From an uncultured virus (IMG/VR IMGVR_UViG_3300025168_000050) (lineage: Duplodnaviria > Heunggongvirae > Uroviricota > Caudoviricetes), in IMG/VR virus record IMGVR_UViG_3300025168_000050: a stretch of DNA of 64,000 nucleotides, one strand, 5' to 3'. The notes beneath the pieces were generated by a model that saw nothing but the letters and a program-made list of their open reading frames with translations, had not been told where the DNA came from and did no database searches. Of this stretch, positions 39,159-63,817 are shown piece after piece (within the stretch, counting starts at the first letter, position 1; every line of letters begins with the position of its first letter). A program made the translations under genes and the position numbers.

Positions 39159-41015
39159 TTATTTACTCCATTCTTTAGTTATTGTATAATCTACACCCAT
39201 TGGGAAATCAGGTATAATGGCTTCACCTGCTTCTCTCATTAGTTTACATTGTATACTTGCCCATTCTTCTGCTACATCATCACGCACTTCCACACCTATT
39301 TCATCGTGGACTTGTGTAACCATATATGCAGGAAAATTATGATTTTCTATATAGTCTCTTATCTTGACCATAGAGAGCTTAATCATATCAGCTCCTGTAC
39401 CTTGTATTGGTGTATTTTTACTTGCACGCTCAATAGCACCGAGTTCCTTAAAATCTTTCTTAGGACTCATACCATTGTGCCAGTTCTCGAACCATCTAAT
39501 CCTTCTATAAGGTTTAAATGTTCTAATAAATCCATGCTGCTTACCATAATTACCCAGAGTATTTAGAAAGCCTCCAATTTTAGGAAACTCTGTAAAGTAC
39601 TGATTAATTAAAGCTTCTGCATCATCGACTGGTATTTGTAGAGTGTCAGATAATTTGAATTTACTCATACCATAAGCAAGACCAAAGTTAATAGTCTTGA
39701 TTGCAGTTCTAAGTTTCTTCTTTTCATCCGCGTCAGCTTCACGCCACTTCTCTTTAAATACCATATCAGCACATATACTGTGAAGATCTGCTTCTTCTTC
39801 ACGTGCTTTCATCCATACAGGATCTTTAGACCCTGAAGCTATAATTCCTAACTCTTGACCTGAATAATCTACGGAAACTAATGAATATCCATCTCTTGCT
39901 TTGAAGCAATTTCTGAATTTATTATCCGCAGGTATATTCTGCATGTTAGGCTTATTATCTGATTTCATACCACTTGATACACGACCAGTGTTTAGTATTT
40001 GCCAAAAGCTAGTTCTAACTTTACCATCTTTCATTACATATTTAAGAAAAGATTTACCATAGGTTGAAACAACCTTTTGTTTTTCTTTATAATGTAAGTA
40101 TTTGGTAACGAATGCTTTACTCTTATGGCGTGATAGTTCAAAAGCATTAACTTTATCTATATCCAAACCATATTCTTTAAATACTTGTAACACCTGTGTA
40201 GGACTTGACCACTTAATGTCTATTTTACGAATTTCTTCAGGTTCAATAAACATATCAGTTTGAAATGATTTCTTTATAAACCTGTTGAGGTTTAATGCAT
40301 AGATCATTTCATCAAGATCACTCTCTAGAACTTTTACGATCTCTTCAGTGTCATCAGCTATTGCTAGCCACGACTCTGAATCAAAACATAATCCGTTATA
40401 TTCTATATCAGCAAAAGCTAAAGCCGCATTGTTCTCCAAGTGCAGAACCTTCTCAAGGTCTAATTCTTTAACTTTTACTAATTGTAGTATTCTTATGTCT
40501 AATAAATGTTCAACGTCTTCAGCACCGTACAGTATCTGTTCAGTGTTAAAGGGGTTACCATCTAGTCCAACAAACTTGTTACGAACCTCTTTGTTCAATT
40601 CTTTACCTAAGTATCTCTGTGTCAGTGCATTAAGTGAGTAACCTACTTTAAGTTTACCACAGTTAATTACACCTTCAGCTAACATAGTGTCATATGGATT
40701 TTTAATATCCACACCCCACTGAGCTTTTAGAAACTTATAATCAAATTTAATGTTGTGAAATATCTTCACAATATTAGGATTTTCCAGAATTGGAATAAGA
40801 GGTTCAATACCAATGTATCTTGTATCAATGACATACTGAACGTCCTTAGTACCGATCTGAAACATCACTACCTTTTTAGAGGTAAAGCATTTGCCAGATG
40901 TCTCAGTATCGACGCCAAGTACAGTTTGTTCAGATAAATAAGTTACAGCTTCATCTATACTCACACATTCAAAGACAGGGTCTATGTCTTGGTGTGCACA
41001 AATTAGCTTTATCAT
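39159..41015 (-). CDS. polA: Family A DNA polymerase with 3'-5' exonuclease
   Basis: Exo 'DTETS', 'HNIKFD', 'YGAED'. Pol 'TGRVSS..PNMQNIP', 'DYSGQE', 'KTINFGLAYG', 'NTPIQGTGAD', 'VHDE'. Confidence 0.95.
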   Translation of the reverse strand: MIKLICAHQDIDPVFECVSIDEAVTYLSEQTVLGVDTETSGKCFTSKKVVMFQIGTKDVQYVIDTRYIGIEPLIPILENPNIVKIFHNIKFDYKFLKAQWGVDIKNPYDTMLAEGVINCGKLKVGYSLNALTQRYLGKELNKEVRNKFVGLDGNPFNTEQILYGAEDVEHLLDIRILQLVKVKELDLEKVLHLENNAALAFADIEYNGLCFDSESWLAIADDTEEIVKVLESDLDEMIYALNLNRFIKKSFQTDMFIEPEEIRKIDIKWSSPTQVLQVFKEYGLDIDKVNAFELSRHKSKAFVTKYLHYKEKQKVVSTYGKSFLKYVMKDGKVRTSFWQILNTGRVSSGMKSDNKPNMQNIPADNKFRNCFKARDGYSLVSVDYSGQELGIIASGSKDPVWMKAREEEADLHSICADMVFKEKWREADADEKKKLRTAIKTINFGLAYGMSKFKLSDTLQIPVDDAEALINQYFTEFPKIGGFLNTLGNYGKQHGFIRTFKPYRRIRWFENWHNGMSPKKDFKELGAIERASKNTPIQGTGADMIKLSMVKIRDYIENHNFPAYMVTQVHDEIGVEVRDDVAEEWASIQCKLMREAGEAIIPDFPMGVDYTITKEWSK

Positions 41016-41016
41016 A

Positions 41017-41277
41017 TCATTTTTCTTCTTTTTGTTGTTCTTTTACTAAATTAATTGTATCTTCAAAACTAGGAGGATTTCCTAATCCATCTTCATCCAG
41101 TAGTTCAGGGCCTACTATATTAGTTTCCCACACCTTAACTACAGCGTTTATATAATCGACAGTATACTCCTGATTTGCAAAGTCTATCTTTTGCTTGTCA
41201 GAAGCGAATTTCAATTTTAATTTCATCACTTGAATGTCGTCAGCAGTCAAGGTTGAAATCCAGTTCATGTGTCCCAT
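41017..41277 (-). CDS. Hypothetical protein
   Basis: 86-aa ORF tightly packed upstream of polA. Confidence 0.55.
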   Translation of the reverse strand: MGHMNWISTLTADDIQVMKLKLKFASDKQKIDFANQEYTVDYINAVVKVWETNIVGPELLDEDGLGNPPSFEDTINLVKEQQKEEK

Positions 41278-41357
41278 TATTCTTCATTTCCAAAAAGCAC
41301 TGCCCATATAAGACAACATAGTCCTAATGTCAGCGCTATTACTATTATTTGTAACAT
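41277..41357 (-). CDS. Single-TM micropeptide (26 aa; not in ORF track)
   Basis: MLQIIVIALTLGLCCLIWAVLFGNEE. Its TAA overlaps the next ATG (TAATG coupling). Confidence 0.5.
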   Translation of the reverse strand: MLQIIVIALTLGLCCLIWAVLFGNEE

Positions 41358-41406
41358 AAAATCATTTTATTTAATTAATAACTATGCCTGTAGTCTGATT
41401 CTTATG

Positions 41407-43260
41407 TTATACTATTTCACAGGACCCGCCTGCGCATGCTATTTCTTGGCTTCTTGTTGTATTATCATCTTTTTCTGTGATCTTACGTAAGTCAATAGCT
41501 TTCAATGAGTTAATCATTGCATAGTATTTAGATTTCGATATGTTTTCGAATGGTGCTTGTGTGTAGGAACCTCCATCATATGGTAATATACTTAAACCAT
41601 TGAATGTATCCCTGTTGGTCCACATCCATTCACCTACCTCTTTCCATTCATTTTCTTTAATGGATACAGTAGCTGATACATTGTTAGTATTATCACCTGA
41701 TCGATGTCCTTGTCTTACCCAGTCAAGATTAAATAGTTTAATCCTTTCTAGTAATTCAAGGGCTGTCTCTTTATGTCGTAAAATGGAATTAGCAGGAGCT
41801 TTTTGAGGGATCTCAATCACTGCAGAGTTTGGTATTAGTTTCATATCAGCAACTAGCTCAGGATGAGCTTCGGCCAAATACTTATATAATGACTCATCCT
41901 TCGTACATTGCATACGTCTAATATAATAGTCGTTATGCCATGCATGAATTCCTGATGATGTCCCTAATACACAGCTCGTAGTACCTGAAGGTTTGATAGT
42001 AGTTACTCTCGATGCTTTATTAACTCCTAATAATTTTGCATAGTTTTCATTGGCATCCATTGCAACTTTCGCCGCCTGGTTCAAATCATACTTCAAAATC
42101 GTACCACTTCCTATTCCTGTCATCCCAACACCAATTAAGGCGTCGTTCTCAGTTGTTGTTCTCCATATTGGTCTAAGATAGTGAAAATCGGTAAAACTAG
42201 CCTGTAAAGTACCTAGTAGTGTTGCTAATTTTACACGTTGATCAAGATCTTTTTGTGACTCAATATTTGAAACATTAACCTCGGTTAGATTACAAAATTG
42301 AAATGGTTTTAGAGCAATTTCACAGCAAGGGTTTGTACCATAGTCACTATTGTTAGTGAAATACATACCTGGTTCACCTGCGTTAGATTCTTTAACTTTT
42401 TTCCAAAACTTATTGAATTCAACTTTAGTGATGCGGTGTCTACGAATTACTGCACTGTTGTTAGCCCGTCCTCTTTGAGGATTTAGCTCCCACCAATTTC
42501 CATATTTACTTGTAAGCATTTCTTCATCATCCATACTGAATAATGAAATCAATGCTGCTCTCCTAATACCTCCTGCAAGCACAGCGTCAGCGATATAACA
42601 CACCATATCGTGCACCTCCAGGGGAGTAAGAGATGTTCCTGTCTCTTTTCTGTTTAATAATGTTTCTAAATGAAATAAGCACACCTTAAGTGGCTCAGGA
42701 CCGGGAGCTTTACCCCCAGCTGTTACTAATCGGGACCCTTTCGGGCGAATGTCAGAGAAGTCAAAAACTGGCTTCGTCTTCCTTATCCCCAGATAGCTTC
42801 CGATTAGATGTCTTACAGAATCAGCCCAACCTTCTATTGAATCTCCAATTACATATTTTTGGGTTTTCATAGGTTTAACTATTTCTGGTAAATTTCTTAC
42901 ATGTTTGAATTGTACAGAGTATCCAACACCTGTTCCTCCTAGTAAAAGGAACATGATCTCAGAGAATGCTCTATAATCATCTATTGGTAAATACGCACAG
43001 TTATAAATCCTTGATTCTGACTTAGTTATAGCAACTCCCGCGAATTGCATAGCCCTCATCGAAGGTAATAATTTTTTCTGTTTTACCGCTTTCATGGCTT
43101 GTTTTATATCCTTTTCCATGTGAGGATGTTTAGTAGTCATCATGTCTCCATAACGATCACATATTTCATTAAATGTTTCTCTTCTACCTAATGATGGTAG
43201 GAACTTGGCGTATTTATTAAAGACGACGATGTCGCTCAATATCTGGTTAGATACTTCCAT
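41407..43260 (-). CDS. nrdJ: Class II (B12-dependent) ribonucleotide reductase
   Basis: 'YNCAY', 'GGTGVGYS', 'RRAALIS', 'TNPCCEI', 'CNLTE', 'TIKPSGT', and C-terminal 'CAGGSC'. No beta subunit nearby. Confidence 0.9.
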   Translation of the reverse strand: MEVSNQILSDIVVFNKYAKFLPSLGRRETFNEICDRYGDMMTTKHPHMEKDIKQAMKAVKQKKLLPSMRAMQFAGVAITKSESRIYNCAYLPIDDYRAFSEIMFLLLGGTGVGYSVQFKHVRNLPEIVKPMKTQKYVIGDSIEGWADSVRHLIGSYLGIRKTKPVFDFSDIRPKGSRLVTAGGKAPGPEPLKVCLFHLETLLNRKETGTSLTPLEVHDMVCYIADAVLAGGIRRAALISLFSMDDEEMLTSKYGNWWELNPQRGRANNSAVIRRHRITKVEFNKFWKKVKESNAGEPGMYFTNNSDYGTNPCCEIALKPFQFCNLTEVNVSNIESQKDLDQRVKLATLLGTLQASFTDFHYLRPIWRTTTENDALIGVGMTGIGSGTILKYDLNQAAKVAMDANENYAKLLGVNKASRVTTIKPSGTTSCVLGTSSGIHAWHNDYYIRRMQCTKDESLYKYLAEAHPELVADMKLIPNSAVIEIPQKAPANSILRHKETALELLERIKLFNLDWVRQGHRSGDNTNNVSATVSIKENEWKEVGEWMWTNRDTFNGLSILPYDGGSYTQAPFENISKSKYYAMINSLKAIDLRKITEKDDNTTRSQEIACAGGSCEIV

Positions 43261-43294
43261 TTTTATTCTTTTTTATATGTTATTAAATGTATTA

Positions 43295-43355
43295 TAGAGT
43301 AGCTAGGAGTCGAACCTAAAAACAGAATTCTGTTTCGAGTACCATGCATACTCTC
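43295..43355 (-). ncRNA. Truncated tRNA-like element in nrdJ leader
   Basis: Minus strand: AGAGTA...TACTCT acceptor-like stem, T-arm TAGG-TTCGACT-CCTA, central hairpin GAAACAG-AATT-CTGTTTT. No anticodon loop and no proper D-stem. Confidence 0.5.
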
Positions 43356-43435
43356 TTTTAAAGCACATTCCAACATTGCCTACTCTACAAATACATTGTA
43401 TTCTTAAGTAGTGTTGAGTTAATTTAAAAGGGTAG

Positions 43436-43443
43436 CAAAGATA
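43436..43443 (-). promoter_or_regulatory. TAnnTTTG -7 promoter element upstream of nrdJ operon
   Basis: TATCTTTG(C) on the minus strand, intergenic. Confidence 0.65.
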
Positions 43444-43450
43444 ACTATTT

Positions 43451-43654
43451 TTAGTTAACCTTACGCCCTCCTAAGTGTAATTTTATTCTTTTATTTACTT
43501 CTTTACGACGAAGTTTATACTCCTCATGTGTTTCTCCTTCTTTACGCGAAGGATCCATATCTATATCAAAGAATGCAGAGTCTACATTACCTGATAATGG
43601 TTCCGCAATGGGGACACCATAGCTTTTCCACTTGTTTTGTTTCTTTTTTGACAT
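43451..43654 (-). CDS. Small basic hypothetical protein
   Basis: 67 aa with 'RKEGETHEEYKLRRK'. Confidence 0.55.
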   Translation of the reverse strand: MSKKKQNKWKSYGVPIAEPLSGNVDSAFFDIDMDPSRKEGETHEEYKLRRKEVNKRIKLHLGGRKVN

Positions 43655-43799
43655 ATTTTCTTTTCTTTTTTAATGTTTTTTTACTGATCCACAATGATGG
43701 CGGTGGATAAACCTTTTCACGCCAGTCCGATTTTGGTGGAGTTACTATTTCACACTCTTTAGGTGAAATTTCGTCTATTATATGTTGATATTTACTCAT
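43587..43799 (-). CDS. Small basic hypothetical protein
   Basis: 70 aa. ATGA-coupled to the upstream gene, and overlaps the downstream ORF by 68 nt. Confidence 0.45.
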   Translation of the reverse strand: MSKYQHIIDEISPKECEIVTPPKSDWREKVYPPPSLWISKKTLKKKRKYVKKETKQVEKLWCPHCGTIIR

Positions 43800-44059
43800 G
43801 ATTCAAGGAATTTAGCTGTTTCTTTACGCTGTTCTTCCCTTATTTTATATAACTTGAGCTCTATCTCAATATTTCTTTTCTGTACTATTAATTTCTGTAT
43901 TTCAGTCTTATATTTGTGTACATTATCATCTAAATCAAGTAAATTCACTAGTAATTTATCATTCTGTTTACCTTTTACTTCAGTCATGATGATAAGACCT
44001 ACAAATATTCCGACTGCAAATGTCAGCAAATATAATAACATTTCGCTACTTACTTCCAT
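43796..44059 (-). CDS. Membrane-anchored coiled-coil protein
   Basis: N-terminal hydrophobic helix 'LLYLLTFAVGIFVGLIIM' followed by a heptad-like segment. Confidence 0.55.
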   Translation of the reverse strand: MEVSSEMLLYLLTFAVGIFVGLIIMTEVKGKQNDKLLVNLLDLDDNVHKYKTEIQKLIVQKRNIEIELKLYKIREEQRKETAKFLES

Positions 44060-44063
44060 AATT

Positions 44064-44273
44064 TTATTCTTTATTAATTAATACTTTATTATATTCAATA
44101 AATAATGAATCTCTTTGATAACTATACTCTAGGTATGCTTTATCTAATTCATAATTTATTTGTTCTTGTCTTGGTGTAATATTGTATGAACATGATGATA
44201 ATAGCACACAAACCACTATAAATAACACCACACGCAACCAACTTACATCACTTAATTTACTATTATCTTTCAT
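44064..44273 (-). CDS. Putative small lipoprotein
   Basis: Hydrophobic signal followed by lipobox 'LLSSC'. Confidence 0.55.
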   Translation of the reverse strand: MKDNSKLSDVSWLRVVLFIVVCVLLSSCSYNITPRQEQINYELDKAYLEYSYQRDSLFIEYNKVLINKE

Positions 44274-44624
44274 TTATTTATTATTTTAATTAAACATTTA
44301 TCTTATTATAGTATAAGTCTAGTAATAGCGTTAGAGAGTTCCGTGCGCCACATATAGATAACTACATGCTTTTGCCTTAGCTAACAATACTACTACTGAC
44401 TCATACAGATTCAACTACTAATTCTCACTGAGAAGTCAAATCAGATTTAACACACTACTCATTCACGCCAGCTCTATCAAAGTAATTTTATAGATGCGTA
44501 GAATGGACTTTGTTTAAAAATGATTTGTGACCAACTTTACACATACTGTGTGTTTCCACGGCGCTTAACCATTCCGGATTAATTAATGTAGACTTTGACT
44601 CGAGTTTTAGCAGTTAAAAATATT

Positions 44625-44689
44625 AAAAAGAAAGGCTTGGGTATTTTTACTCAGGAGCGACCTGAAACCAACTTTTTACTCCTTTCTTT
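44625..44689 (-). terminator. Branched stem-loop followed by U-tract
   Basis: AAAGAAAGG/CCTTTCTTT outer stem and TCAGG/CCTGA inner stem, directly after the stop of 44694..44930. Confidence 0.5.
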
Positions 44690-44693
44690 ATAT

Positions 44694-44930
44694 TCAGTCA
44701 AATAAGAATCTTTTACCTTGATTATGGTAATATCTAGATTCTCTTGCTGCCATTGTACATGCGAATGACATTATTACTCCAAATATAATAGCAAATAGAT
44801 TTGTTAATCCATTACCAAGGTCAAATGGACCTAAAATGATTAATACTATAGATATTGGAAATGCTATCATACCGATGTATAATAGAGAGACACATACTGT
44901 GTCTGCGAAATGTTTTAAATTATTTTTCAT
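44694..44930 (-). CDS. Small two-TM membrane protein
   Basis: 78 aa with two hydrophobic stretches. Confidence 0.55.
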   Translation of the reverse strand: MKNNLKHFADTVCVSLLYIGMIAFPISIVLIILGPFDLGNGLTNLFAIIFGVIMSFACTMAARESRYYHNQGKRFLFD

Positions 44931-44954
44931 ACTTGATTATATGTTTTTATTGTT

Positions 44955-45000
44955 AAAAAAAAGGAAGAACAAGAGAGTGCATCACACACTCTCAAGTTCA
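44955..45000 (-). terminator. Intrinsic terminator
   Basis: GAGAGTG...CACTCTC hairpin followed by TTGTTCTTCCTTTTTTTT on the minus strand, after the 240-aa ORF. Confidence 0.6.
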
Positions 45001-45014
45001 TATTCCAGCCAGTT

Positions 45015-45737
45015 TTATGATAATGAAGGAAGAGCACTAATTATCTCTCCTGTTTCAGTATTTACAGTGACATCTGCGTCTGATTGATAAAGATTATCAG
45101 CAGAAACATATTCATCTATTTCAGTATGTGACCAACCATTTTCGTTAGTATACACACCATTTTCATCTCTTGTTGCAGCTTTCAATAATGTTCTACTGAA
45201 CACATGTTCTACTGCATTTGTTTCAGGGTTCATACCTTTGATAAATCTCCCTGTTGAACCTGCTTTTTTACCTGCTTTCTCAATGTTACTAAGTTCCCAA
45301 GCAGTAGCATTTGATTCAAATACCTCGTTGATACATACTCTGAAATACATTTGTAGTCCATTATGTTGTACACTTGGACTAAGCTCTCCAATGAAGATAC
45401 CAGGTCCAGCAGAACTAGAAGTTCTGATAGATAATTGTGCTATTGCGTTCTTATCTATTTGAGGGAAATATTGAGACACCTCAGCCTCTCCGAAGTTTAA
45501 CCAGTGTCTTCTACAACCACTTGATGGTGTAAATGCAGGGTTAGAAGCTTGAGCCATTTGTACAAAATTTGTACCTGACGCTCTTGTTACTTTCGTATCA
45601 GTTAGTTTGTGTCCAAACTCTACTTGAAATGTTTTAGCACCTGTCTTCTTGTCGTTGTTAATACGAGTTAAAGTGATAGCTGCACATTCATTATCAGGCA
45701 TACTTGCTACGAATTGATTTACTCTATTTTGATCCAT
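45015..45737 (-). CDS. Hypothetical (probably early) protein
   Basis: 240-aa ORF with highly-expressed-type codon bias. No recognised motif. Confidence 0.7.
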   Translation of the reverse strand: MDQNRVNQFVASMPDNECAAITLTRINNDKKTGAKTFQVEFGHKLTDTKVTRASGTNFVQMAQASNPAFTPSSGCRRHWLNFGEAEVSQYFPQIDKNAIAQLSIRTSSSAGPGIFIGELSPSVQHNGLQMYFRVCINEVFESNATAWELSNIEKAGKKAGSTGRFIKGMNPETNAVEHVFSRTLLKAATRDENGVYTNENGWSHTEIDEYVSADNLYQSDADVTVNTETGEIISALPSLS

Positions 45738-46230
45738 TGTTTCTTTTGTACGGTTTACACATTGTACTCTTCGGTTTTTGGTGTTATCACAACTTTAGCT
45801 ATATATATAGTAATATACTGTAATAACAATGATTAAAATGTTAGTTAAAATGGTAGGTGTATGAGTATACAGTGTCTAAGAGTATACTTATTTTCGTTAA
45901 ATCGTTAAGTTCTTTCAGTGTTGAGTTTGTTTACTACACGAATAGGAATATAATTCGTAGTACAGATAGACGAATGATACACATACATACCACTCTTTAG
46001 TAAAGGTCATAGATTTAAATAAAAAAATAAAGACAGTAAACTCTTACATTTACTCAGAGGTCGTAATACTGTCCTTATTGTGTTTTACACACACACTCAA
46101 CACTAGGTTTTTATAAAAGAATAGTCCATCTTACGAGTTCTTATGGGTTACGGACTTACTCCGGATTACTGAACTATTCTTTATGATTAAACTAGCTTAC
46201 CAAGATTAAGTAAAGGTCTTGGATCTAAAT

Positions 46231-46290
46231 AAAAAAAAGAAACCACTCATCCAAATTTAGCCGTAGTTGCTTAGTCAAGGGATGAGTGGT
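46231..46290 (-). terminator. Intrinsic terminator-like stem-loop
   Basis: Perfect 11-bp inverted repeat ACCACTCATCC(46242-46252)/GGATGAGTGGT(46280-46290), followed by TTCTTTTTTTT on the minus strand. Confidence 0.6.
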
Positions 46291-46357
46291 GTATCATACT
46301 GATTAAAGAAGTGTATGATGACTTCTGAACTCTATCTGGCTGGATAGTTAGTTCCCA

Positions 46358-46645
46358 CTACTTCTTCGTAGAAACGTTCCTGAATACGTAGCCTATTCGG
46401 CTAATCATATCCTGAACTTGTTGCATTCTCTCTGGAGTATAGTTAATCATCCATGACTGCGTGTCATCGATAATCTCCCCTGTCTCAAGGTTGAATGCTA
46501 CATTCTTCTCCTGACGACAGAAGAATATCGGCTGGTTGTCTCTCTTACGTGTGTAAGGGCCATCGCAACTGATATACTCTATCCTCTTAACTGTAGAGTC
46601 TACAGTAGGAGCTGAAGTAGTGATAGGTTGAATTGTATCTACCAT
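46358..46645 (-). CDS. Hypothetical protein, first gene of minus-strand block (probable start 46645, 95 aa)
   Basis: The ORF track gives 46744, but that extension crosses G6 tracts and the 22-bp motif. The in-frame ATG at 46645 lies 10 nt downstream of the motif. Confidence 0.55.
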   Translation of the reverse strand: MVDTIQPITTSAPTVDSTVKRIEYISCDGPYTRKRDNQPIFFCRQEKNVAFNLETGEIIDDTQSWMINYTPERMQQVQDMISRIGYVFRNVSTKK

Positions 46646-46796
46646 ATCTATCTTCAGAAAAGGTGATAGATCTAAATCAATTTCGACGTGGGGGGATTCA
46701 ATCTTCTTTGTTGACCGGGGGGAGTTTTCAATAATGGTCTGCATCTCTAAATACCTCTTAAATAATATTTTTTATAAAAAATTATATTTTATATAT

Positions 46797-46814
46797 TATT
46801 TTTGTATATCTTTG
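46797..46814 (+). promoter_or_regulatory. Tandem TAnnTTTG -7 elements driving plus-strand block
   Basis: TATTTTTG (46797-46804) and TATCTTTG (46807-46814) upstream of ATG 46865. Confidence 0.65.
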
Positions 46815-46864
46815 CATCTGAATTAAGAGGTATAGTGTTATAACTATAGCTAAAATATAAATGA

Positions 46865-47224
46865 ATGGCACATGAAGATAAAAAAATAGAAGAAGCAATA
46901 CCGCATGCATGTAATAACTTTTCGGTATCATCTTCTGTAGTGGATAGAACCATAGCAAAGGAATATGTAGATAAACACGGTTTAACAATACACTACCATA
47001 AAGAATTAAGAGACGGAACTCCAAGAAGAGTATGGGATATACATGACCCTTCTGGGCATATGGCTGGTAGATTATATACAGCAGTTGCAGGATATGGTCT
47101 TAAAAATAGAGAACCGTGGAAAGATGAATTTGATTTCGCGGAATTTTTTGTAAACAGAGATAGGTGGGATGATAAGGAGCTTATAGCACCAGATACTAAA
47201 CACTTCAATAATATCGCGGGTTAG
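46865..47224 (+). CDS. Hypothetical protein
   Basis: 119-aa ORF whose last 10 nt overlap the tRNA 5' end. Confidence 0.6.
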   Translation: MAHEDKKIEEAIPHACNNFSVSSSVVDRTIAKEYVDKHGLTIHYHKELRDGTPRRVWDIHDPSGHMAGRLYTAVAGYGLKNREPWKDEFDFAEFFVNRDRWDDKELIAPDTKHFNNIAG

Positions 47225-47285
47225 AGTAATGGTAACTCGACGGTTTCATTAGCCGAAGCTGAAGGTTCGATTCCTTCACCCGCTA
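47215..47285 (+). tRNA. tRNA-Met (CAT), initiator-like
   Basis: Acceptor CGCGGGT/ACCCGCT (C1:T72 mismatch), D-arm GAGT-AATGGTA-ACTC, anticodon arm CGGT-TTCATTA-GCCG, T-arm GAAGG-TTCGATT-CCTTC. No encoded CCA. Confidence 0.85.
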
Positions 47286-47308
47286 CTAAATTTAATAAAT
47301 AAAGAATA

Positions 47309-47644
47309 ATGGCAATAACTAATAATACGAAACTTATAGGAGCAATAAAAAATCAACATGTTTCAACATCCCCAGGACTTGGTTGTGGGGCAATACTCGT
47401 CCCAGCGGGACATCCATTACCGGCAGGAGATTATGTAATGATTAAACCATGGACAAGTTCTGGAAGTACAGTACTAAGCAATATTGTATGGAAAGGAGAA
47501 CCTTGGGCAGATGCAACTAGCTCTTCATATTCAGGTCTAACAACTATAACTTTTGATAACCGAGTAATTATGGAATATGAAATGAATATTGAATCTTGTG
47601 ATGTAACAGGATCACCTGCTCTTTTTTACAAAAGATGTAAATAA
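47309..47644 (+). CDS. Hypothetical protein (beta-rich, possibly structural)
   Basis: 111-aa ORF with an A-rich leader. Confidence 0.6.
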   Translation: MAITNNTKLIGAIKNQHVSTSPGLGCGAILVPAGHPLPAGDYVMIKPWTSSGSTVLSNIVWKGEPWADATSSSYSGLTTITFDNRVIMEYEMNIESCDVTGSPALFYKRCK

Positions 47645-47647
47645 AAC

Positions 47648-47851
47648 ATGATAGACAAAGACCTAGTTAAAAAACTAATAGATAAATATGATTTACCAGA
47701 CTTTGTAATAGAAAGTATAGTTAAGTCACAGTTTAAGTTTGTTCAAAATAAGATTGAAGAAGGTAAATGCGCTAAGGTAAGATTACATCACTTTGGAGTA
47801 TTTAAAGTAAAACCAAAAAGATTGTATATAATAAATAAAGAAACTAGCTAA
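47648..47851 (+). CDS. IHF/HU-like DNA-binding protein
   Basis: Helical N-terminus followed by 'KVRLHHFGVFKVK', matching the HU/IHF 'V.L.GFG.F' pattern. Confidence 0.7.
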   Translation: MIDKDLVKKLIDKYDLPDFVIESIVKSQFKFVQNKIEEGKCAKVRLHHFGVFKVKPKRLYIINKETS

Positions 47852-48105
47852 TGCCAGTAGTACAGATAGGAGGAGACCCAGTAGAAGCACTGAGACTGTT
47901 AAAAGCTCAGAAAAGCGAATTAGAAAGTAAAAAATCAGCTTCAGATCTAATGAGAGATGAAAAAGGGATTAGAGCTTATGAGTCAGGAGTAAAACAAAAA
48001 GAAAACGAAATGGATCAACTTGCATCTGGACAACCTATGCCTACAGTTCCTGGTTTTAATGATTATATAGTAAACAACCTTGTAAAACCAGTAGGATTTG
48101 TATAA
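47851..48105 (+). CDS. Hypothetical protein
   Basis: 84 aa, TAATG-coupled on both sides. Confidence 0.6.
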   Translation: MPVVQIGGDPVEALRLLKAQKSELESKKSASDLMRDEKGIRAYESGVKQKENEMDQLASGQPMPTVPGFNDYIVNNLVKPVGFV

Positions 48106-49136
48106 TGGCAGCATTAATAAACATACCAGGAGTTGGGATTATATCAATGGATACTCAAGCTGATGTAGATAATGCTAATAGTTTCTTAGATATTGTTTTA
48201 TTAAGAGGTAGTATTGTGCATACTAATATGGATAGTGAGGCTGAAGGGTCTTTAATAGACCCTTTTATTAACACTGAAGACCTTTCAATAAATGGTATGG
48301 GCTATAATACAGCTAAACTAAAAGGATATACTCAAGTTGAATGGGATGCTATATTTGGAACTAATAGTACATTTAAGCCTTCACAAAATACAATACCTAC
48401 TTCTGTAAATGCTACATCAACTATTGTAGATCAAAGTAAAGCCCAAAAAGCTAGAGCTGCTAGATTAGCACCTCCTCCGAGTTGGGTAACATATTCCTGC
48501 CTTTCAACTGTTTTACAATTTAATCTTTTTGATTGTTTTAAATCAAGCGGTGCTTGTAATGGTAATAATGCAGATGGAAGTATAGTTTGGAGTATACACT
48601 GTGCCGATCCATTACCAGCCCAAACTGGACCAAATGCATATTATGAATGGTCTGTTATAGATAGCCTTGGTACTGTTGTACATGCTGGAATATATGATGG
48701 AGGAGCAGGTACTGTTACAGAATCAGTAGGATCAGGAGTAATTACTAGTCTGCCTCCAAGTTCTTTTACTCAAAGTAATTTTCAAACTAATGGTTTACTT
48801 CCAGGTAATTATACTTGTAGTATTTTTAACTTTACTGGAGGAGGAAATACTTATGGAACTTATAATATCTCAGGAGTAGTATTAGGAAGTACACCACTAA
48901 ATTGTATACCAGGAGATCCTAATTATGATGTTAGTTGTTGCCCTCCTATTATTTATGGATGTACAGATCCAGCGGCTACTAATTATGACCCAACTGCAAC
49001 TAATGATGATGGTAGTTGTACATATCCTCCACCGCCACCACCACCGCCTGCAGGAAATCCACCTATGCAAGAAGATGGTTGTCCGTGTGAAGGGGCACAA
49101 AATTGTGAAGAATGTGGAGATAATGGAAATTATTAA
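48105..49136 (+). CDS. Cys/Pro-rich protein with GCTD-NY-DDGSC module (possible virion surface protein)
   Basis: 'GCTDPAATNYDPTATNDDGSCTY', a poly-Pro linker, and an Ig/SprB-like 'GLLPGNYTCSI' segment. Confidence 0.6.
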   Translation: MAALINIPGVGIISMDTQADVDNANSFLDIVLLRGSIVHTNMDSEAEGSLIDPFINTEDLSINGMGYNTAKLKGYTQVEWDAIFGTNSTFKPSQNTIPTSVNATSTIVDQSKAQKARAARLAPPPSWVTYSCLSTVLQFNLFDCFKSSGACNGNNADGSIVWSIHCADPLPAQTGPNAYYEWSVIDSLGTVVHAGIYDGGAGTVTESVGSGVITSLPPSSFTQSNFQTNGLLPGNYTCSIFNFTGGGNTYGTYNISGVVLGSTPLNCIPGDPNYDVSCCPPIIYGCTDPAATNYDPTATNDDGSCTYPPPPPPPPAGNPPMQEDGCPCEGAQNCEECGDNGNY

Positions 49137-49147
49137 AATAAAAGAAT

Positions 49148-49687
49148 ATGTCATTATTTGATTTAAAAAATGGAAATATAGTACTTAACCCTGATTCATT
49201 AGCTTTACCATGTTTTCATAAGATATGGAAAAGGGATAAGACAAAAGAAAAAGAAAAGGCTACACAAGAAATATCATATGTATACTTTATGTGTGATTAT
49301 AACAGCCCTTATGCAGTGTATCCTGCAAATAAAAAGAGGCAAGTAGTAGTAGATGATTTTATAGGTGATAAAAAATGGAAAGAAACGCCGGAAATTTTAT
49401 TAGCTATGAAAACATATAAAGAACTCCAGGAGACTCACACAATGAGACTCATGAGAGCGGCTAAAGGAGCATCAGATAAATTAGCTGGATATTTTGAGAA
49501 CATAGATTTTCTCAGAATGGATGATAATGGTAAACCTATTTATACTGCTAAAGATGTAGCATATAATTTAGAAAAAGTAGGAACCATTGTAGATAGTTTA
49601 GATAAACTAGAAACACGAATTAAAAAAGAAGTTAGAACAGATTCTCGTGTTCGTGGAGGAGGAGAAATTGGAATGTTTGAACGTTAA
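49148..49687 (+). CDS. Conserved crAss-like protein upstream of terminase (possible small terminase)
   Basis: 'IWKRDKTKEKEKA..EISYVYFMCDYNSPY' and C-terminal 'RVRGG'. The TerS role is inference only. Confidence 0.5.
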   Translation: MSLFDLKNGNIVLNPDSLALPCFHKIWKRDKTKEKEKATQEISYVYFMCDYNSPYAVYPANKKRQVVVDDFIGDKKWKETPEILLAMKTYKELQETHTMRLMRAAKGASDKLAGYFENIDFLRMDDNGKPIYTAKDVAYNLEKVGTIVDSLDKLETRIKKEVRTDSRVRGGGEIGMFER

Positions 49688-49705
49688 ATAAAAAAATAAG
49701 AAATT

Positions 49706-50092
49706 ATGGGATGTGGATGTAATAAAAATAAAAAACCTGCAGCAAATCAGAGTTATTCAGCTAAAATAAATTCTAGATTAGGATTTGATAGTGTACCTAA
49801 TTCTAAAGATTTTCCTGCTACACCGATAAAGACAGAAGAGAAAGTAGAACCTAAATCTCCATCTTTATTTGCTAAAGCTTTGAATTTAGGAGAGGCTTTA
49901 GCAAACCATGTAGCAGATGGAATGAGTAAAGTCACTAAAGAACAAATGGCAGATAGATTAAGTGTATGCCAAAGGTGTCCATTTATATCAGGCGGGAATT
50001 GTACAAAATGTGGTTGTATATTATCAGTAAAAGCTGGATGGAAAACATCTGAATGCCCTGATAACAGATGGCCTATATTAATAGAAAAATAA
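49706..50092 (+). CDS. Cys-rich Zn-binding protein (DUF6171-like)
   Basis: N-terminal 'MGCGC' and 'RLSVCQRCP...CTKCGC..K......CP..RW'. Confidence 0.6.
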   Translation: MGCGCNKNKKPAANQSYSAKINSRLGFDSVPNSKDFPATPIKTEEKVEPKSPSLFAKALNLGEALANHVADGMSKVTKEQMADRLSVCQRCPFISGGNCTKCGCILSVKAGWKTSECPDNRWPILIEK

Positions 50093-50100
50093 AAATAATA

Positions 50101-50310
50101 ATGGAAGAAATATTTCAACTTATAGAAGGTTATGGATTACCTTTAGTGTTATTGCTAGGAGCATTATACGCTTTATATAGATTCTTAGTATTTTCGTTAT
50201 ATGAAGTGAAGAATCAATTTTCACGTCATCACGAAAGGGCGGCTGATAATATGACAGAACTAAAAAAGAAAATAGATATAATTTTAGAATATATAAGAAA
50301 TACAAAATGA
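50101..50310 (+). CDS. Single-TM holin-like protein
   Basis: Probable start at ATG 50101. 'YGLPLVLLLGALYALYRFLVF' followed by a coiled tail, near the endolysin. Confidence 0.45.
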   Translation: MEEIFQLIEGYGLPLVLLLGALYALYRFLVFSLYEVKNQFSRHHERAADNMTELKKKIDIILEYIRNTK

Positions 50311-50311
50311 T

Positions 50312-50557
50312 ATGGCAATTACAAGGAAACAATTAGTAGAGCATTATGGGTTTAGACCTACTAAGGATAATAAAAAACTATTAACCCGAAAAGTAGGAGG
50401 AGAAGAAACAATAGATGTATATGGAAACGTATTATTTTATCATGGAAAGGCAATCTTAACATTAGAATGGATGCCATCCGAGATGTTTTCCAGATATTTA
50501 GAAAAAATGATAAGTAGTGTTAAAAAGAAAATGAAATATGCCGAGAGAGAAATATGA
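50312..50557 (+). CDS. Hypothetical protein
   Basis: 81-aa ORF in a tight operon. Confidence 0.55.
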   Translation: MAITRKQLVEHYGFRPTKDNKKLLTRKVGGEETIDVYGNVLFYHGKAILTLEWMPSEMFSRYLEKMISSVKKKMKYAEREI

Positions 50558-50774
50558 TCAAGAAATATTAGATGAAGCTATGCGAAATGCATATGCTATT
50601 GTAACTGGAAAATTTACATTAGAAACTTTAATGGATCTGTCCGAAGAAGTAGCATTACCATTTAATATAGAAAAAGAAAAGCCCGATTATGATGCAATGA
50701 TCGAGTATTTTATAGAGACGGAAGAATATGAAAAGTGCGAACAGTTAGTAAAATTAAAAAATGAATCAGAATAA
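50538..50774 (+). CDS. Hypothetical protein with UVR-like 'EEYEKC' motif (paralog of 25911..26276)
   Basis: 'MIEYFIETEEYEKCEQLVK'. Confidence 0.6.
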   Translation: MPREKYDQEILDEAMRNAYAIVTGKFTLETLMDLSEEVALPFNIEKEKPDYDAMIEYFIETEEYEKCEQLVKLKNESE

Positions 50775-50859
50775 ACAACAAGAAATTATAGGATGGAAAA
50801 TAGTATTTATATACTTACTTGTAATGGTATTAGTTTATTTGGTTGGAACAATTATTTAA
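50761..50859 (+). CDS. Single-TM micropeptide (32 aa; not in ORF track)
   Basis: MNQNKQQEIIGWKIVFIYLLVMVLVYLVGTII. Fills the gap before the two-TM gene. Confidence 0.45.
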   Translation: MNQNKQQEIIGWKIVFIYLLVMVLVYLVGTII

Positions 50860-50862
50860 ATA

Positions 50863-51087
50863 ATGGGAGATTTTAAAAATATATTTAAAAATAGTAATGA
50901 TTATAATGAGAAAACTATAATAGGTTTTATAGCGTTTGTTATTATGATCTTAATAATGTTAGCCGATCTTATTACAGGTTGGATAGGAAAAGATTTAGTA
51001 ATTAATGAATTTGTATATGACTCATTCCTATTCCTAGTATTAGGATGTTTTGGGATTGCAGGCATAGAAAAATTCGCAAAAAAATAA
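50863..51087 (+). CDS. Two-TM holin-like protein
   Basis: Two hydrophobic helices and a basic C-terminus 'EKFAKK', upstream of the endolysin. Confidence 0.55.
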   Translation: MGDFKNIFKNSNDYNEKTIIGFIAFVIMILIMLADLITGWIGKDLVINEFVYDSFLFLVLGCFGIAGIEKFAKK

Positions 51088-51091
51088 AATT

Positions 51092-51256
51092 ATGGCAGGA
51101 GAAGCAAAAGAATTTTTACACTCTGATGAGTTAAGTGAATGGGATACAGTATTTGATCCAGGTGGTAAACAAGAATATACTGAAGAACAATTAATACGCT
51201 TTGCAGAAATGTGGGCAGATATAAAACTAAAAAAAGATAATAATGAAAAAATGTGA
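51092..51256 (+). CDS. Small acidic hypothetical protein (54 aa; not in ORF track)
   Basis: MAGEAKEFLHSDELSEWDTVFDPGGKQEYTEEQLIRFAEMWADIKLKKDNNEKM. Confidence 0.5.
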   Translation: MAGEAKEFLHSDELSEWDTVFDPGGKQEYTEEQLIRFAEMWADIKLKKDNNEKM

Positions 51257-51413
51257 ATGTGGACAAACAAGTAATGTGGATGGATGGTGTGATGGCACTC
51301 ATCAAAAAATTAAAAGTACTATTACAAAGGTTAAAGAAGCAGTATGTAAAGGAGTCTGTAAAATTACAGGAAACAAAATCCAACTTGGATGGTGTGGAAC
51401 TAAATGCTGTTAA
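51243..51413 (+). CDS. CDGSH-type iron-sulfur microprotein (56 aa; not in ORF track)
   Basis: MKKCECGQTSNVDGWCDGTHQK...CKGVC...WCGTKCC, containing a CxC...CDGTH motif. Its stop is 1 nt before the endolysin ATG. Confidence 0.7.
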   Translation: MKKCECGQTSNVDGWCDGTHQKIKSTITKVKEAVCKGVCKITGNKIQLGWCGTKCC

Positions 51414-51414
51414 A

Positions 51415-51933
51415 ATGACAAAAATAAGTGATCATGTAAGTTATAAAGAAGGTATTTATAGTGCTACTGCTTTACGAAAAGGAATAGAGAATACTCCTGG
51501 TCCAGATCAGTTAAAATGTATGATGGAAATTGCAGAGAATGTATTTGAACCTTTAAGAGAATGGGTAGGGGGACCTATAAAGATTAATAGTTTTTTTAGA
51601 GGTAAAAAATTAAATACTGCTATTGGGGGATCTAAAACTTCTCAACATATGAAAGGACAGGCTATGGATATAGATGATACATTTGGACATAAAACAAATG
51701 CTGAAATGTACTACTATATAAAAGATAATTTAGTATTCGATCAAATGATCTGGGAGTTTGGAGATGATTATAACCCTAATTGGTTACATGTTAGTTTTGT
51801 TACTCATAGAAAAAACAGAAAGAAATTAACTGTTGCATATAAAGATGAGTTTGGAAAAACTAAATACATGCATACAGAAAAACATGAGACTAGAACCGGA
51901 GGATTATCTCCAGATTGCGGACCAAGAATATGA
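51415..51933 (+). CDS. Endolysin, peptidase M15 family (true start 51415)
   Basis: 'INSFFR', 'LNTAIGGSKTSQHMKGQAMD', 'FDQMIWE', 'WLHVSF'. Confidence 0.85.
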   Translation: MTKISDHVSYKEGIYSATALRKGIENTPGPDQLKCMMEIAENVFEPLREWVGGPIKINSFFRGKKLNTAIGGSKTSQHMKGQAMDIDDTFGHKTNAEMYYYIKDNLVFDQMIWEFGDDYNPNWLHVSFVTHRKNRKKLTVAYKDEFGKTKYMHTEKHETRTGGLSPDCGPRI

Positions 51934-52481
51934 AAAGAATAGGAGAATATGTATTTGAATGGGTAACTAGATTTAGGTCATATGTTTACTTTAAAAAGAT
52001 TGATGCATCTACATCTGTCAAAGTTATTGTTATAGATGAAGATGGTAAATTAGGAACTAATTATGTTGCAGGACCAAGAGGAAATCAAGGCCCTAAAGGA
52101 GACACTGGCGATAGAGGGGCACAAGGCGACCAAGGTATACAAGGAATACAAGGAATTCAGGGGATACAAGGTATCCAAGGTGATAGAGGAACTCAAGGCG
52201 CTACAGGATCTCGTGGAGCAACAGGAACAACAGGAAGTCAAGGAGCAACAGGTGCCAAGGGAGATACAGGAGACCAAGGTATTCAGGGTATTCAGGGTGT
52301 TAGAGGAGATACCGGAGCACAAGGTACCCCAGGAGTTAATGGTGTATTAGATATAACTTCTGGCTTTGCAGCAGCGTTAGCAGTAACTGAAAGTAGAGGT
52401 ATTTATACATTAACAATTAACGTTACTAATAGAAGCATTGTAGGTTTTGGTACTAAATCAGTAGCATTTACACTGAGATAA
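51930..52481 (+). CDS. Collagen-like (Gly-X-Y) repeat protein
   Basis: About 30 consecutive GXY triplets (GIQ, GDT, GAT). The ATG at 51930 overlaps the preceding TGA. Confidence 0.8.
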   Translation: MKRIGEYVFEWVTRFRSYVYFKKIDASTSVKVIVIDEDGKLGTNYVAGPRGNQGPKGDTGDRGAQGDQGIQGIQGIQGIQGIQGDRGTQGATGSRGATGTTGSQGATGAKGDTGDQGIQGIQGVRGDTGAQGTPGVNGVLDITSGFAAALAVTESRGIYTLTINVTNRSIVGFGTKSVAFTLR

Positions 52482-52495
52482 AAAATAATATAATA

Positions 52496-52828
52496 ATGAC
52501 ATATTTAGAAGCAAGAGAAAACACAACAGTTAATAGACTATTTAATCATGATTCTGTGCCGGGTAATATAGAATTACCTTATCAGAATGATAAAGATATT
52601 AGATTTTTAAGAATAACTAATATAACACCTTTACCTTTAATATTAGATATATATGTAGAAGGTAAGCCTCCCCAAAGTCTAAAATATTATGTATGTAAAG
52701 ATATTACTATTAACAATGGAGCAAGTTTAGAATTTAATGAAGATGATATTTTTATAGCCCCTGGATATAAATTAATGGTAAAAACACCAGTTGCTAATTC
52801 TTTTTCTGCAATATATAGATTAAAATAA
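52496..52828 (+). CDS. Hypothetical beta-rich protein (possibly structural)
   Basis: 110-aa ORF directly upstream of TerL. Confidence 0.6.
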   Translation: MTYLEARENTTVNRLFNHDSVPGNIELPYQNDKDIRFLRITNITPLPLILDIYVEGKPPQSLKYYVCKDITINNGASLEFNEDDIFIAPGYKLMVKTPVANSFSAIYRLK

Positions 52829-52829
52829 T

Positions 52830-54842
52830 ATGAATCATTTTCAGATAGTACCCAGCTTTGTTAACACAAGAGAATTTTCTTGTGAGGCTAAATCATTTAT
52901 AAAAAATGGTTATTATACTAATTCGCCTGCAGGTACATATGCCTATAGAGAATATTGGGAAGAGCAGACTCGTAGATGTATGGAAGGTTTTGAAGTAGGA
53001 GGAGTTAGAATTACAGGTGCTCACTATTTTTATTTAAACTTTACACAGATAAAAGCAACAGTTAAGCAAGGAAAAATAGAAAGAAAAGTATTAACATTTC
53101 CATCTTTTCTAGATATGGATTACTATTATTTTATGGAATGTGAAATAGCTAGAGAAAATGGACAAGGAATTATCGTAGCCAAAGCAAGACGAAAAGGATT
53201 CTCATATAAAAATGGAGCACTATGTGTATATCAATATAATTTTTACAGAGACTCTACAAGTATAATAGGTGCATATTTAAATGAATATTCTAATGCAACT
53301 ATGAGTATGGCATTTGAAATGTTAAACTTTATTAATAAACATACAGCATGGGCAAAACGTAGAAATCCTGATAGAAGAGATTTTGTAAAAGCTAGATTTA
53401 AAGAAGTTGTGGACGGGCAAGAAGTTTGGAATGGATATAACAGTGAGATATTTACACTAACATTTAAAGATAACTTCTCAGCAGCTATTGGTAAAACTGC
53501 AGATCTAATGTTATTTGAAGAAGCGGGAAAATTCCCTAATTTAATAAATGCTTATATGGTAACGGCACCAGTATTTAGAGACGGTAATGTTATGATTGGT
53601 ATGCCATTAATATTTGGTACAGGGGGTGATATGGATGGAGGATCAAATGATTTTGCTGAAATGTTTTATAACCCAGAAAAGTATTGGTTAAGGGCTTATG
53701 AAAATATTTGGGATGATGGAGGTGCTGGAACAAATGCTGGATTCTTTATTGATGATATGTGGTATAAGCCCGGAAAGGTAACTATGCCAGATGGAGAAGT
53801 TGTTAATATGGTAGATGATCAAGGGAATTCAAATAGAGAAGCAGCTGAAGTATTTTTAGATCAAGAACGTCAGATTTTAAAAACTACAGATTCAAGATCT
53901 ACATGGGAAAAATATATTACACAATCTCCTAAAACACCTAGAGAAGCATTCTTAAAAACAAGCGGAAATATATTTCCTACTATTGAACTTAATACATGGT
54001 TAGCAGAAATTGAAACTACAAAAAAGGCACAAGATCTAGCTATGGTAGGAGAGTTGTATTGGGAAAAAGATAAAGTAAAATGGATGCCTAATAATGAACT
54101 TAAGCCTATTAATAAGTTTCCATTAAAACCTAATGAAGATAAAACAGGATGTATTGTTATATGGGAACATCCATACCATGATAAAACATCAGATGAAATT
54201 CCATTTGGATTATACATAGGAGGTACCGATCCTTATGACCAGGATAATTCTACAACTAGTTCTCTTGGAAGTACTTTTATATATAAGACATTCCAAAAAT
54301 TTGATAAAACATATAATCTACCAGTAGCAGAATATACAGGTAGACCAGAGACCGCAAAAGAATATTATGAGAATATAAGAAAACTTCTTACATATTATAA
54401 TGCGCAAACCTTGTATGAGAATAACTTAAAAGGTTTGAAGATATACTTTGAGCAGAAAAAATCTTTACATTTATTAAAATCTCAACCAAGTATATTAAAA
54501 GATATAGTAAATAGATCTACAGTATCTAGAGGGTATGGAGTACACATGAGTGAGCCTATTAAGATACAATCTGAGATTTATTTGAGAGATTGGTTGTTAG
54601 AAAAAAGAGCGGATACAGATGAAGGGGATAAATTAAACCTACATTCTATTTTATCTATTCCGCTACTAAAAGAATTAATTGCTTATGATAAACAGGGTAA
54701 CTTTGATAGGGCAATAGCGTTTATGCTTTGTATTCTACATAGCCATGAAAACTATCATATAGATCTAGAAAGTCAGTTCGATCATGGACAAAGTGATAAA
54801 TTCTGGCGTACAAACCACTTTAAAAAAAGAAAAGTATGGTAA
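52830..54842 (+). CDS. terL: Terminase large subunit
   Basis: 'KARRKGFSYK' Walker A, 'LFEEAG' Walker B, 'FGTGG', nuclease 'GGTDPY', 'YENN', 'GNFDR'. No intron or intein visible. Confidence 0.93.
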   Translation: MNHFQIVPSFVNTREFSCEAKSFIKNGYYTNSPAGTYAYREYWEEQTRRCMEGFEVGGVRITGAHYFYLNFTQIKATVKQGKIERKVLTFPSFLDMDYYYFMECEIARENGQGIIVAKARRKGFSYKNGALCVYQYNFYRDSTSIIGAYLNEYSNATMSMAFEMLNFINKHTAWAKRRNPDRRDFVKARFKEVVDGQEVWNGYNSEIFTLTFKDNFSAAIGKTADLMLFEEAGKFPNLINAYMVTAPVFRDGNVMIGMPLIFGTGGDMDGGSNDFAEMFYNPEKYWLRAYENIWDDGGAGTNAGFFIDDMWYKPGKVTMPDGEVVNMVDDQGNSNREAAEVFLDQERQILKTTDSRSTWEKYITQSPKTPREAFLKTSGNIFPTIELNTWLAEIETTKKAQDLAMVGELYWEKDKVKWMPNNELKPINKFPLKPNEDKTGCIVIWEHPYHDKTSDEIPFGLYIGGTDPYDQDNSTTSSLGSTFIYKTFQKFDKTYNLPVAEYTGRPETAKEYYENIRKLLTYYNAQTLYENNLKGLKIYFEQKKSLHLLKSQPSILKDIVNRSTVSRGYGVHMSEPIKIQSEIYLRDWLLEKRADTDEGDKLNLHSILSIPLLKELIAYDKQGNFDRAIAFMLCILHSHENYHIDLESQFDHGQSDKFWRTNHFKKRKVW

Positions 54843-54869
54843 ACTAGTGGATTATTAAAATAAATTATA

Positions 54870-54877
54870 TATTTTTG
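54870..54877 (+). promoter_or_regulatory. TAnnTTTG -7 element upstream of portal
   Basis: TATTTTTG(TAGG), intergenic, with the same context as the 2372 site. Confidence 0.6.
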
Positions 54878-54901
54878 TAGGTTGAAAAACAGTACTGAAT
54901 A

Positions 54902-59519: not shown

Positions 59520-59592
59520 TAAAACGCTATAATAAACAATAAAAAATTTATTTTTTCCTTTCAAAAGGTTTTTTTATGTAATTAATTAAATA

Positions 59593-59600
59593 TATTTTTG
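59593..59600 (+). promoter_or_regulatory. TAnnTTTG -7 element upstream of capsid operon
   Basis: TATTTTTG(TA), 22 nt before ATG 59623. Confidence 0.6.
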
Positions 59601-59622
59601 TAAATTCTTAAAAAAATAAACT

Positions 59623-60816: not shown

Positions 60817-60847
60817 AATAATTTAATAACTAAAAAAGAAAAAGTGA

Positions 60848-62296: not shown

Positions 62297-62318
62297 ATTA
62301 ATAAATTAAACATTAAAC

Positions 62319-63784: not shown

Positions 63785-63817
63785 TAAAATAAATAATTAA
63801 TTTTAAAATAAAAAGTA

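Follow-up and report, generated by a model that had tools for sequence, protein, structure and literature searches.

A conserved 33-nt motif as a candidate phage-specific promoter array at the head of the early-type strand of a marine crAss-like phage

The window, by which we mean the whole 64,000-nucleotide stretch that was analysed, is part of the genome of an uncultured marine crAss-like phage. Its plus strand (46865-64000 and 1-26276) carries the genes for lysis, terminase, portal, major head protein and tail/virion proteins, together with an ORF of 5594 aa, and its minus strand, from 46744 down to 26262, encodes ribonucleotide reductase, DNA polymerase, helicases, primase, a Sak4-like protein and rIIA/rIIB. 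This gene layout places the motif array described here where the coding strand switches and the replication arm begins. The gene of an HU/IHF-like protein (47648-47851) is close to it, and a tRNA-Met (CAT) gene at 47215-47286 on the plus strand, between the first two rightward ORFs, was the only feature returned by an Rfam scan of 43000-47400.

CrAss-like phages inject a giant RNA polymerase, and the first-pass annotation had taken the 5594-aa ORF (9119-25903, plus strand) for this enzyme. The identification was borne out: the sequence DFDID is found at residue 3399, and a 2000-aa stretch around it matched PDB 6VR4, the phi14:2 virion RNA polymerase gp66, with an E-value of 9.7e-25. The ORF was assigned as a virion RNA polymerase fusion protein of the gp66 family. 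No sigma factor or second polymerase was found among the 52 ORFs scanned against Pfam and PHROGs.

Three copies of a 22-nt motif had been reported on the minus strand, at 46656-46677 (c1), 46209-46230 (c2) and 45999-46020 (c3), and all three were recovered with 0 mismatches and in the same orientation. With up to 3 mismatches allowed, the pattern ATTTARATCYAWSACCTTTWCT matched the window 3 times, where 0.08 matches are expected by chance, and 3 or more matches were obtained in none of 100 dinucleotide-preserving shuffles of the window. All three fall inside 0.7 kb, at the strand switch, where the early genes begin. G001 (86,270 bp, 99% complete), the whole virus record closest to the window, likewise holds these three and no fourth, and a reversed control pattern gave 0 matches in it.

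While the 22 nt stood as reported, the conserved element proved to be longer, ∼33 nt, with ∼11 nt more on the downstream side, and the leading ATTT of the reported motif belongs in part to the T-run of a terminator. The extended element can be written (T-rich)-TAGATC-N4-ACCTTTACT-N7-GGTA, where GGTA occupies motif positions 30-33 and the spacer behind TAGATC comprises 4 variable bases, or 2-5 in some copies (alignment A3). A sequence-only profile, R1, was made from the 18 copies of alignment A3, which come from six distant relatives, the window and its close kin being left out. Applied to the window, R1 returned exactly c2 (46198-46230; 32.1 bits, E 6e-9), c3 (45988-46020; 28.8 bits, E 6e-8) and c1 (46645-46677; 20.9 bits, E 2e-5), all on the minus strand and here given in their extended form. 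The next hit scored only 10 bits, so that neither the pattern nor the profile found a further copy elsewhere in the window, as the first-pass annotation had also stated.

The three copies head three successive minus-strand units. In its 22-nt form c1 ends 10 nt 5′ of the ATG at 46645, as had been noted, and in its extended form its last base is the A of this ATG, which opens ORF1 (46358-46645, minus strand; 95 aa), the first early gene. ORF1 has no match in Pfam or PHROGs and the protein atlas gave no usable hit; homologues of 80-95 aa are present in 7 related loci. In all 8 loci with an ORF1 homologue, the window counted, an ATG with its A at motif position 33 starts ORF1, and in 6 of the 8 it is the start of the longest ORF; the window and L204 have an additional upstream in-frame ATG. 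In two lineages, G004 and G005, the first gene is another one and motif position 33 is not the A of an ATG.

Terminator T1 (46231-46290, minus strand; −19.4 kcal/mol, z −3.0) consists of an 11-bp stem and, behind it, UUUCUUUUUUUU; in the relative L057 the stem is preserved across changes on both sides (alignment A1). A second terminator hairpin, T2 (46026-46079, plus its U-tract, minus strand; −15.9 kcal/mol, z −2.7), ends unit 2, a stretch of ∼177 nt (46021-46197, minus strand) with no ORF of 50 aa or more and no Rfam family at E ≤ 1. Unit 2 is conserved in relatives in its 3′ half and variable by insertions in its 5′ half. That c2 and c3 begin directly behind the U-tracts of stable hairpins, T1 and T2 respectively, agrees with the earlier description. 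The T2 loop (GACC.CT.GAGTAAA...) is common to the window and G002 though the stems differ, which suggests a second role for this hairpin.

Behind c3 lies a conserved leader of 250 nt (45738-45987, minus strand; alignment A2, 7 lineages), which holds the invariant block ATATTAnTATATATATAGCKAAAGT and is followed by an ORF of 240 aa (45015-45737, minus strand). No family could be assigned to this ORF: neither Pfam nor PHROGs gave a match, the protein atlas gave no assignment, and an AF2 model (mean pLDDT 69) returned nothing at E ≤ 0.001 in Foldseek and no Z above 2.6 in VIA-align. Its homologues are 71-78% identical in close lineages and 26-35% in distant ones. The terminator T3 (44955-45006, minus strand; −20.4 kcal/mol, z −4.8) follows the ORF, and no motif copy follows T3. 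The sequence TATAGCKAAA occurs exactly twice, in divergent orientation: the minus-strand copy (45794-45803) lies inside the invariant leader block and the plus-strand copy (46845-46854) heads the rightward operon. At K, the window and G002 have T in both copies, and G005 and G006 have G in both.

Upstream of c1 there is no terminator T-run but an almost invariant anchor (46678-46744, minus strand; ATGCAGACCATTATTG...CCCCCC...CCCCCCACGTCGAAA), which is kept in 14 related loci. It lies ∼70 nt upstream of c1, in the intergenic region 46648-46864, and is laid out as ATGCAGACCATTATTG, two C6 runs and CGTCGAAA. The anchor is more conserved than the flanking genes, and the invariant region that includes it extends over 190 bp. 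The additional in-frame ATG of the window and L204 falls within it. The corresponding reading frame is stop-closed or different in relatives, so not consistently coding, and the anchor was read as non-coding on account of its lack of synonymous variation. A genome end, an entry site and a regulatory site are all possibilities for it.

Relatives were collected from IMG/VR by three routes. An exact scan for a 19-nt form of the motif gave 51 loci, with 2-3 copies in four related contigs. A terminase search gave 32 loci at 83-99% identity, and all the relatives belong to one clade. A scan for the anchor upstream of c1 gave 84 stretches, of which 80 were examined and 14 retained for their C-run context, the remainder being dropped as chance. 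Ribonucleotide reductase was too widespread to serve as bait (80 loci at ∼60-66% identity plus 2 close relatives). Two matches to the 19-nt pattern were set aside: that in L007 is palindromic, and in L045, an unrelated IMG/VR contig of 52.8 kb, the core matches but the flanks differ and there is no T-run context. The L045 match belongs to a longer repeat present as two copies 549 nt apart (1501-2071). Among GenBank phages, blastn with 3 kb of sequence found no match; tblastn with the terminase found 159 records, all below 60% identity and at most 41% among the 25 matches listed, most of them crAss-like phages of Bacteroides, Flavobacterium and Cellulophaga.

The motif recurs at the same places throughout this clade. 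In five genomes that are 99-100% complete (86-89 kb; terminase 84-92% identical to that of the window), R1 hits of at least 18.7 bits numbered 3, 3, 2, 3 and 3, all in one cluster at the head, and the only other hits at E ≤ 1 were two of ∼12 bits each. The polymerase core of these relatives (801 aa around DFDID) shares 64% identity with the window in G002, 53% in G006, 49% in G004 and 50% in G005. In the 14 anchor loci (52,370 nt, both strands, E ≤ 0.01), the early strand accounts for all 40 R1 hits, every one of them downstream of the anchor; 6 of these loci had supplied copies to R1, and for those six the result speaks to strand and clustering alone. Each lineage has 3-4 copies, one just before the first gene and the others directly behind terminators, and the last copy precedes the long conserved leader of an ORF of ∼230-270 aa. 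A curated set of 27 copies (20 internal and 7 head copies, with identical copies and the second subtype-B copy of G004 left out) gave the same picture: a T-run of at least 5 behind a hairpin precedes 19 of the 20 internal copies, the exception being G004_c4, and the 7 head copies have the C-rich anchor upstream instead. Thus, the modular array first proposed for the window, in which motif, unit and terminator follow one another from the start of the early-type strand, extends to related phages.

Comparison of close relatives also indicated that the units are exchanged. In L055 and L005, whose ORF1 is almost the same as that of the window, T1 and c2 are separated by an extra unit consisting of a variant motif copy, an ORF of 82 aa and a terminator; in the window T1 is joined directly to c2, and L057 has yet other cargo. 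The presence or absence of a cassette between near-identical relatives means that units are gained and lost at motif boundaries. Within a lineage the copies can also change together. In G005, TATGACC, ACG and GC(A/G)AT replace the TAGATC, ACT and GGTA of other lineages in all three copies, and the G004 copies all start CACTA, with two more G004 copies forming a diverged subtype. Such concerted change fits either co-evolution with a single reader or gene conversion between the copies. Across four genomes there was no clear correlation between divergence of the motif and divergence of the polymerase: the polymerase cores of G004 and G005 are both ∼50% identical to that of the window, and the motif blocks are changed only in G005.

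The motif had been described as unlike the TAnnTTTG element of the host, and indeed no TAnnTTTG occurs inside any of the three window copies. The Bacteroidota primary-sigma type composite, TTTG-N17-21-TAnnTTTG, has no site in the window, and no leftward TAnnTTTG box is present on the minus strand in 46648-46864. Intergenic boxes facing plus-strand genes are found at 2372, 46797, 46807, 54870 and 59593; those at 46797 and 46807 overlap (46797-46814, plus strand) and face the rightward lysis/structural operon. On the minus strand, two or three intergenic sites lie further down. The absence of a leftward host-type promoter at the head, together with boxes that face the structural operon, favours a phage reader for the motif. 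A scan for sigma-70-like sites, listed for 40000-48000, gave 36 where 34.5 are expected, and none of the 36 overlaps a motif copy. One of them, TATACA-16-TATAAT at 46808-46781, points leftward upstream of c1, and given these totals it is not above chance.

Recognition through a DNA hairpin, as at the early promoters of phage N4, was also considered. RNAalifold predicted 0 pairs on the 18 aligned copies, and a candidate ACC/GGT stem was paired in 44% of cells, compared with 72% when shifted by one column, with a covariation score that was reached by 292 of 500 shuffles. An N4-type hairpin model was therefore rejected for this motif.

From the element itself, its specificity and conservation, its position relative to the terminators and the ORF1 ATG, and the family of the polymerase, we infer initiation at the motif, the enzyme responsible and the start site. 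A unit that lies behind a terminator needs its own start signal, and the motif is the sole conserved element there. In addition, it is specific to the phage, always points the same way, is found only at the start of the early-type strand and keeps a fixed position relative to the first start codon, and its 33-nt core has been kept while the neighbouring 240-aa protein has fallen to 26-35% and the polymerase core to 49-64% identity. Judged by these comparisons of sequence, the motif is most likely a promoter. The gp66-type polymerase is its natural reader, as the only polymerase available other than that of the host, and we consider the chances that the virion polymerase does read it to be about even. 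The full reading, a phage-specific promoter that starts short minus-strand early units and has the 5594-aa gp66-type polymerase as its likeliest reader, may be given a probability close to one half.

Under this promoter reading, the injected 5594-aa polymerase would act before any phage protein is made. It would recognize the DNA by sequence over ∼33 nt, through the three blocks TAGATC, ACCTTTACT and GGTA and with no DNA hairpin, and transcription would probably start at or just before motif position 33. An ORF1 mRNA that starts about there would have little or no leader. Initiation at c1 would produce the ORF1 unit, ended by T1; c2 would start a non-coding RNA of ∼177 nt, ended by T2; and c3 would start the 250-nt leader and the 240-aa ORF, ended by T3. 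With just three copies, packed into 0.7 kb, the motif is missing from most of the 20-kb replication arm, which must be read otherwise, by read-through or from other promoters, for which a TAnnTTTG box at 43436, before the reductase gene, is a candidate. This weighs against the reading, as does the early region of phi14:2 (its first 9 kb), which has no comparable motif.

A more ambitious form of the promoter reading, which we regard as somewhat less probable than its negation, is that the motif represents the first sequence-defined promoter class of a crAss-like two-barrel virion polymerase. Such a promoter would consist of 33 nt in three blocks without a hairpin, would start transcription at its last base to give a leaderless first mRNA, and would be placed behind each terminator for a unit-by-unit restart at the genome's leading end. 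In G005, the copies would then represent a natural switch in specificity, like that between T7 and T3 promoters.

The strongest alternative, although an unlikely one, is that the motif is a promoter read by the host RNA polymerase, through an alternative sigma or a factor that binds AGATC and ACCTTTACT. In four copies from relatives (G002_c2, G002_c3, G006_c2 and L217_c2) the 3′ block reads TA-N3-TTTG, one base longer than the TAnnTTTG of the Bacteroidota −7 box, T-rich DNA lies approximately where a −33 element would sit, and host-type boxes are in use elsewhere in the genome. However, the box is missing from all three window copies, the most conserved bases of the motif would fall in the spacer of a host-type promoter, and transcripts starting ∼7 nt past the box would lack the conserved ATG of ORF1 at position 33. 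None of the 52 scanned ORFs supplies a sigma factor or second polymerase, and the lineage-wide change in all the G005 copies is easier to explain with a reader encoded by the phage.

Less probable still is a role as an operator bound by a phage or host DNA-binding protein, or as a 5′ RNA element that serves processing, stability or antitermination, in which case the transcripts carrying it would start upstream of c1. The invariant 190-bp region there, which contains the anchor and the leftward sigma-70-like site, could accommodate such a start, and the HU/IHF-like protein is encoded close by; the sigma-70-like site, however, is at the chance level given above. Moreover, c2 and c3 lie directly behind strong terminators, and their units would be left without a start signal of their own. 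Antitermination would need just one upstream nut-like site, and on inspection of alignment A3 the motif does not fit the consensus WATCAANNNNTTR, with which it was compared under this explanation. Finally, the exact presence or absence of a cassette between two copies in near-identical relatives could mean that the repeats mainly serve as scaffolds for recombination, or are left over from cassette duplication, and carry no signal of their own. This is very improbable: such remnants should decay like their flanks, yet the 33-nt core persists although the sequence on either side is entirely different from copy to copy and from lineage to lineage, and strand, position relative to the terminators and position relative to the ORF1 ATG are all fixed.

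The promoter reading can be set beside several known systems. The gp66 polymerase of phi14:2 is of the same family as that of the window, and it makes rifampicin-resistant early transcripts (bioRxiv 10.1101/2020.03.07.982082). The early strand of phi14:2 opens with small genes and highly expressed non-coding RNAs, to which unit 2 may be similar, and its whole replication module is reported as early (bioRxiv 10.1101/2020.03.07.982082). No common motif was found upstream of the early transcripts (bioRxiv 10.1101/2020.03.07.982082), and to this extent the motif of the window marks a difference. In coliphage N4, the early promoters P1-P3 are DNA hairpins with a GC-rich heptamer centred at −11 and inverted-repeat flanks, and are read by an injected T7-like single-subunit virion RNA polymerase (PMC4496689). 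The arrangement here is like that of N4 in having three copies on one strand, placed ahead of the early genes, a giant polymerase in the particle and a host consensus that is not used (PMC4496689). It is unlike N4 in that the motif forms no hairpin and the polymerase is of the two-barrel gp66 type rather than T7-like and single-subunit.

The PeSL cassettes of the T4-type phages RB49 and phi1 are the closest known architecture. In these, small early genes that are not essential are enclosed by terminator-plus-promoter signals, cassettes are gained or lost between close relatives by recombination from copy to copy, and the promoters are strong, sigma-70-like and read by the host (PMC2839356). 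In both arrays a stem-loop terminator is joined to a promoter, here a predicted one, and cassettes are shuffled, as seen here between the window and L055/L005; in contrast to the PeSL promoters, the motif follows neither the sigma-70 nor the Bacteroidota consensus. The Thermus phage P23-45 has a two-barrel polymerase, fused to a giant virion protein, that transcribes its first genes, and in that study promoter motifs were found within −30 to +1 of starts located by ONT-cappable-seq (PMC10770324). The comparison of the motif with the promoters of the P23-45 virion and non-virion polymerases is one of polymerase type and promoter placement.

Phage-polymerase early promoter arrays and promoter-terminator cassettes are known kinds of element, to both of which the motif can be related. 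We found in the literature no sequence definition of a promoter for a crAss-like (gp66-family) virion polymerase, and the word ‘promoter’ occurs 0 times in a 2023 review of the Crassvirales (PMC10136315). The motif is a testable candidate for the signal by which an injected crAss-like polymerase finds its start sites. Being short, conserved and lineage-specific, available in natural variants and fixed in position relative to a start codon, it offers a template for transcription assays in vitro and for structural studies of promoter recognition by a two-barrel single-chain polymerase. On the promoter reading, the first early units of this lineage would be exchangeable promoter-cargo-terminator cassettes, some encoding RNAs rather than proteins.

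Some further features of the early arm may concern RNA. A stretch of 10-11 nt in unit 2, just 5′ of T2 (46094-46104, minus strand), is complementary to 45917-45927 (minus strand), which sits ∼63-71 nt into the c3 leader. Complementarity is kept at the same positions in four pairs (AGTGTTGAGT/ACTCAACACT, TTGGTTAGG/TCTAACCAA, GTGTTGGTTGGT/ATCAATCAACAC and TGGTTGGAGT/ATTCCAACTA), although each helix alone is not significant, being matched by 5 to 152 of 200 shuffles, and RNA duplex energies of unit 2 against the c3 leader calculated on long sequences gave z-scores of −1.4 to +0.6. The pairing in these sequences could reflect an sRNA and its target or a long-range RNA helix. Further down the arm, an ORF-free stretch of 420 nt (44274-44693, minus strand) lies behind a terminator-like hairpin at ∼44640-44690 and may be another RNA gene. 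At 43296-43386 (minus strand) there is a tRNA-like sequence, with acceptor pairing AGAGTAG...CTACTCT and the T-arm GGTTCGACTCC, for which ARAGORN made no tRNA call and Rfam gave nothing at E ≤ 1. The early non-coding regions of phi14:2 (L188, ∼1830 and ∼4480) also contain T-arm-like stretches, GGTTCGAATCC.
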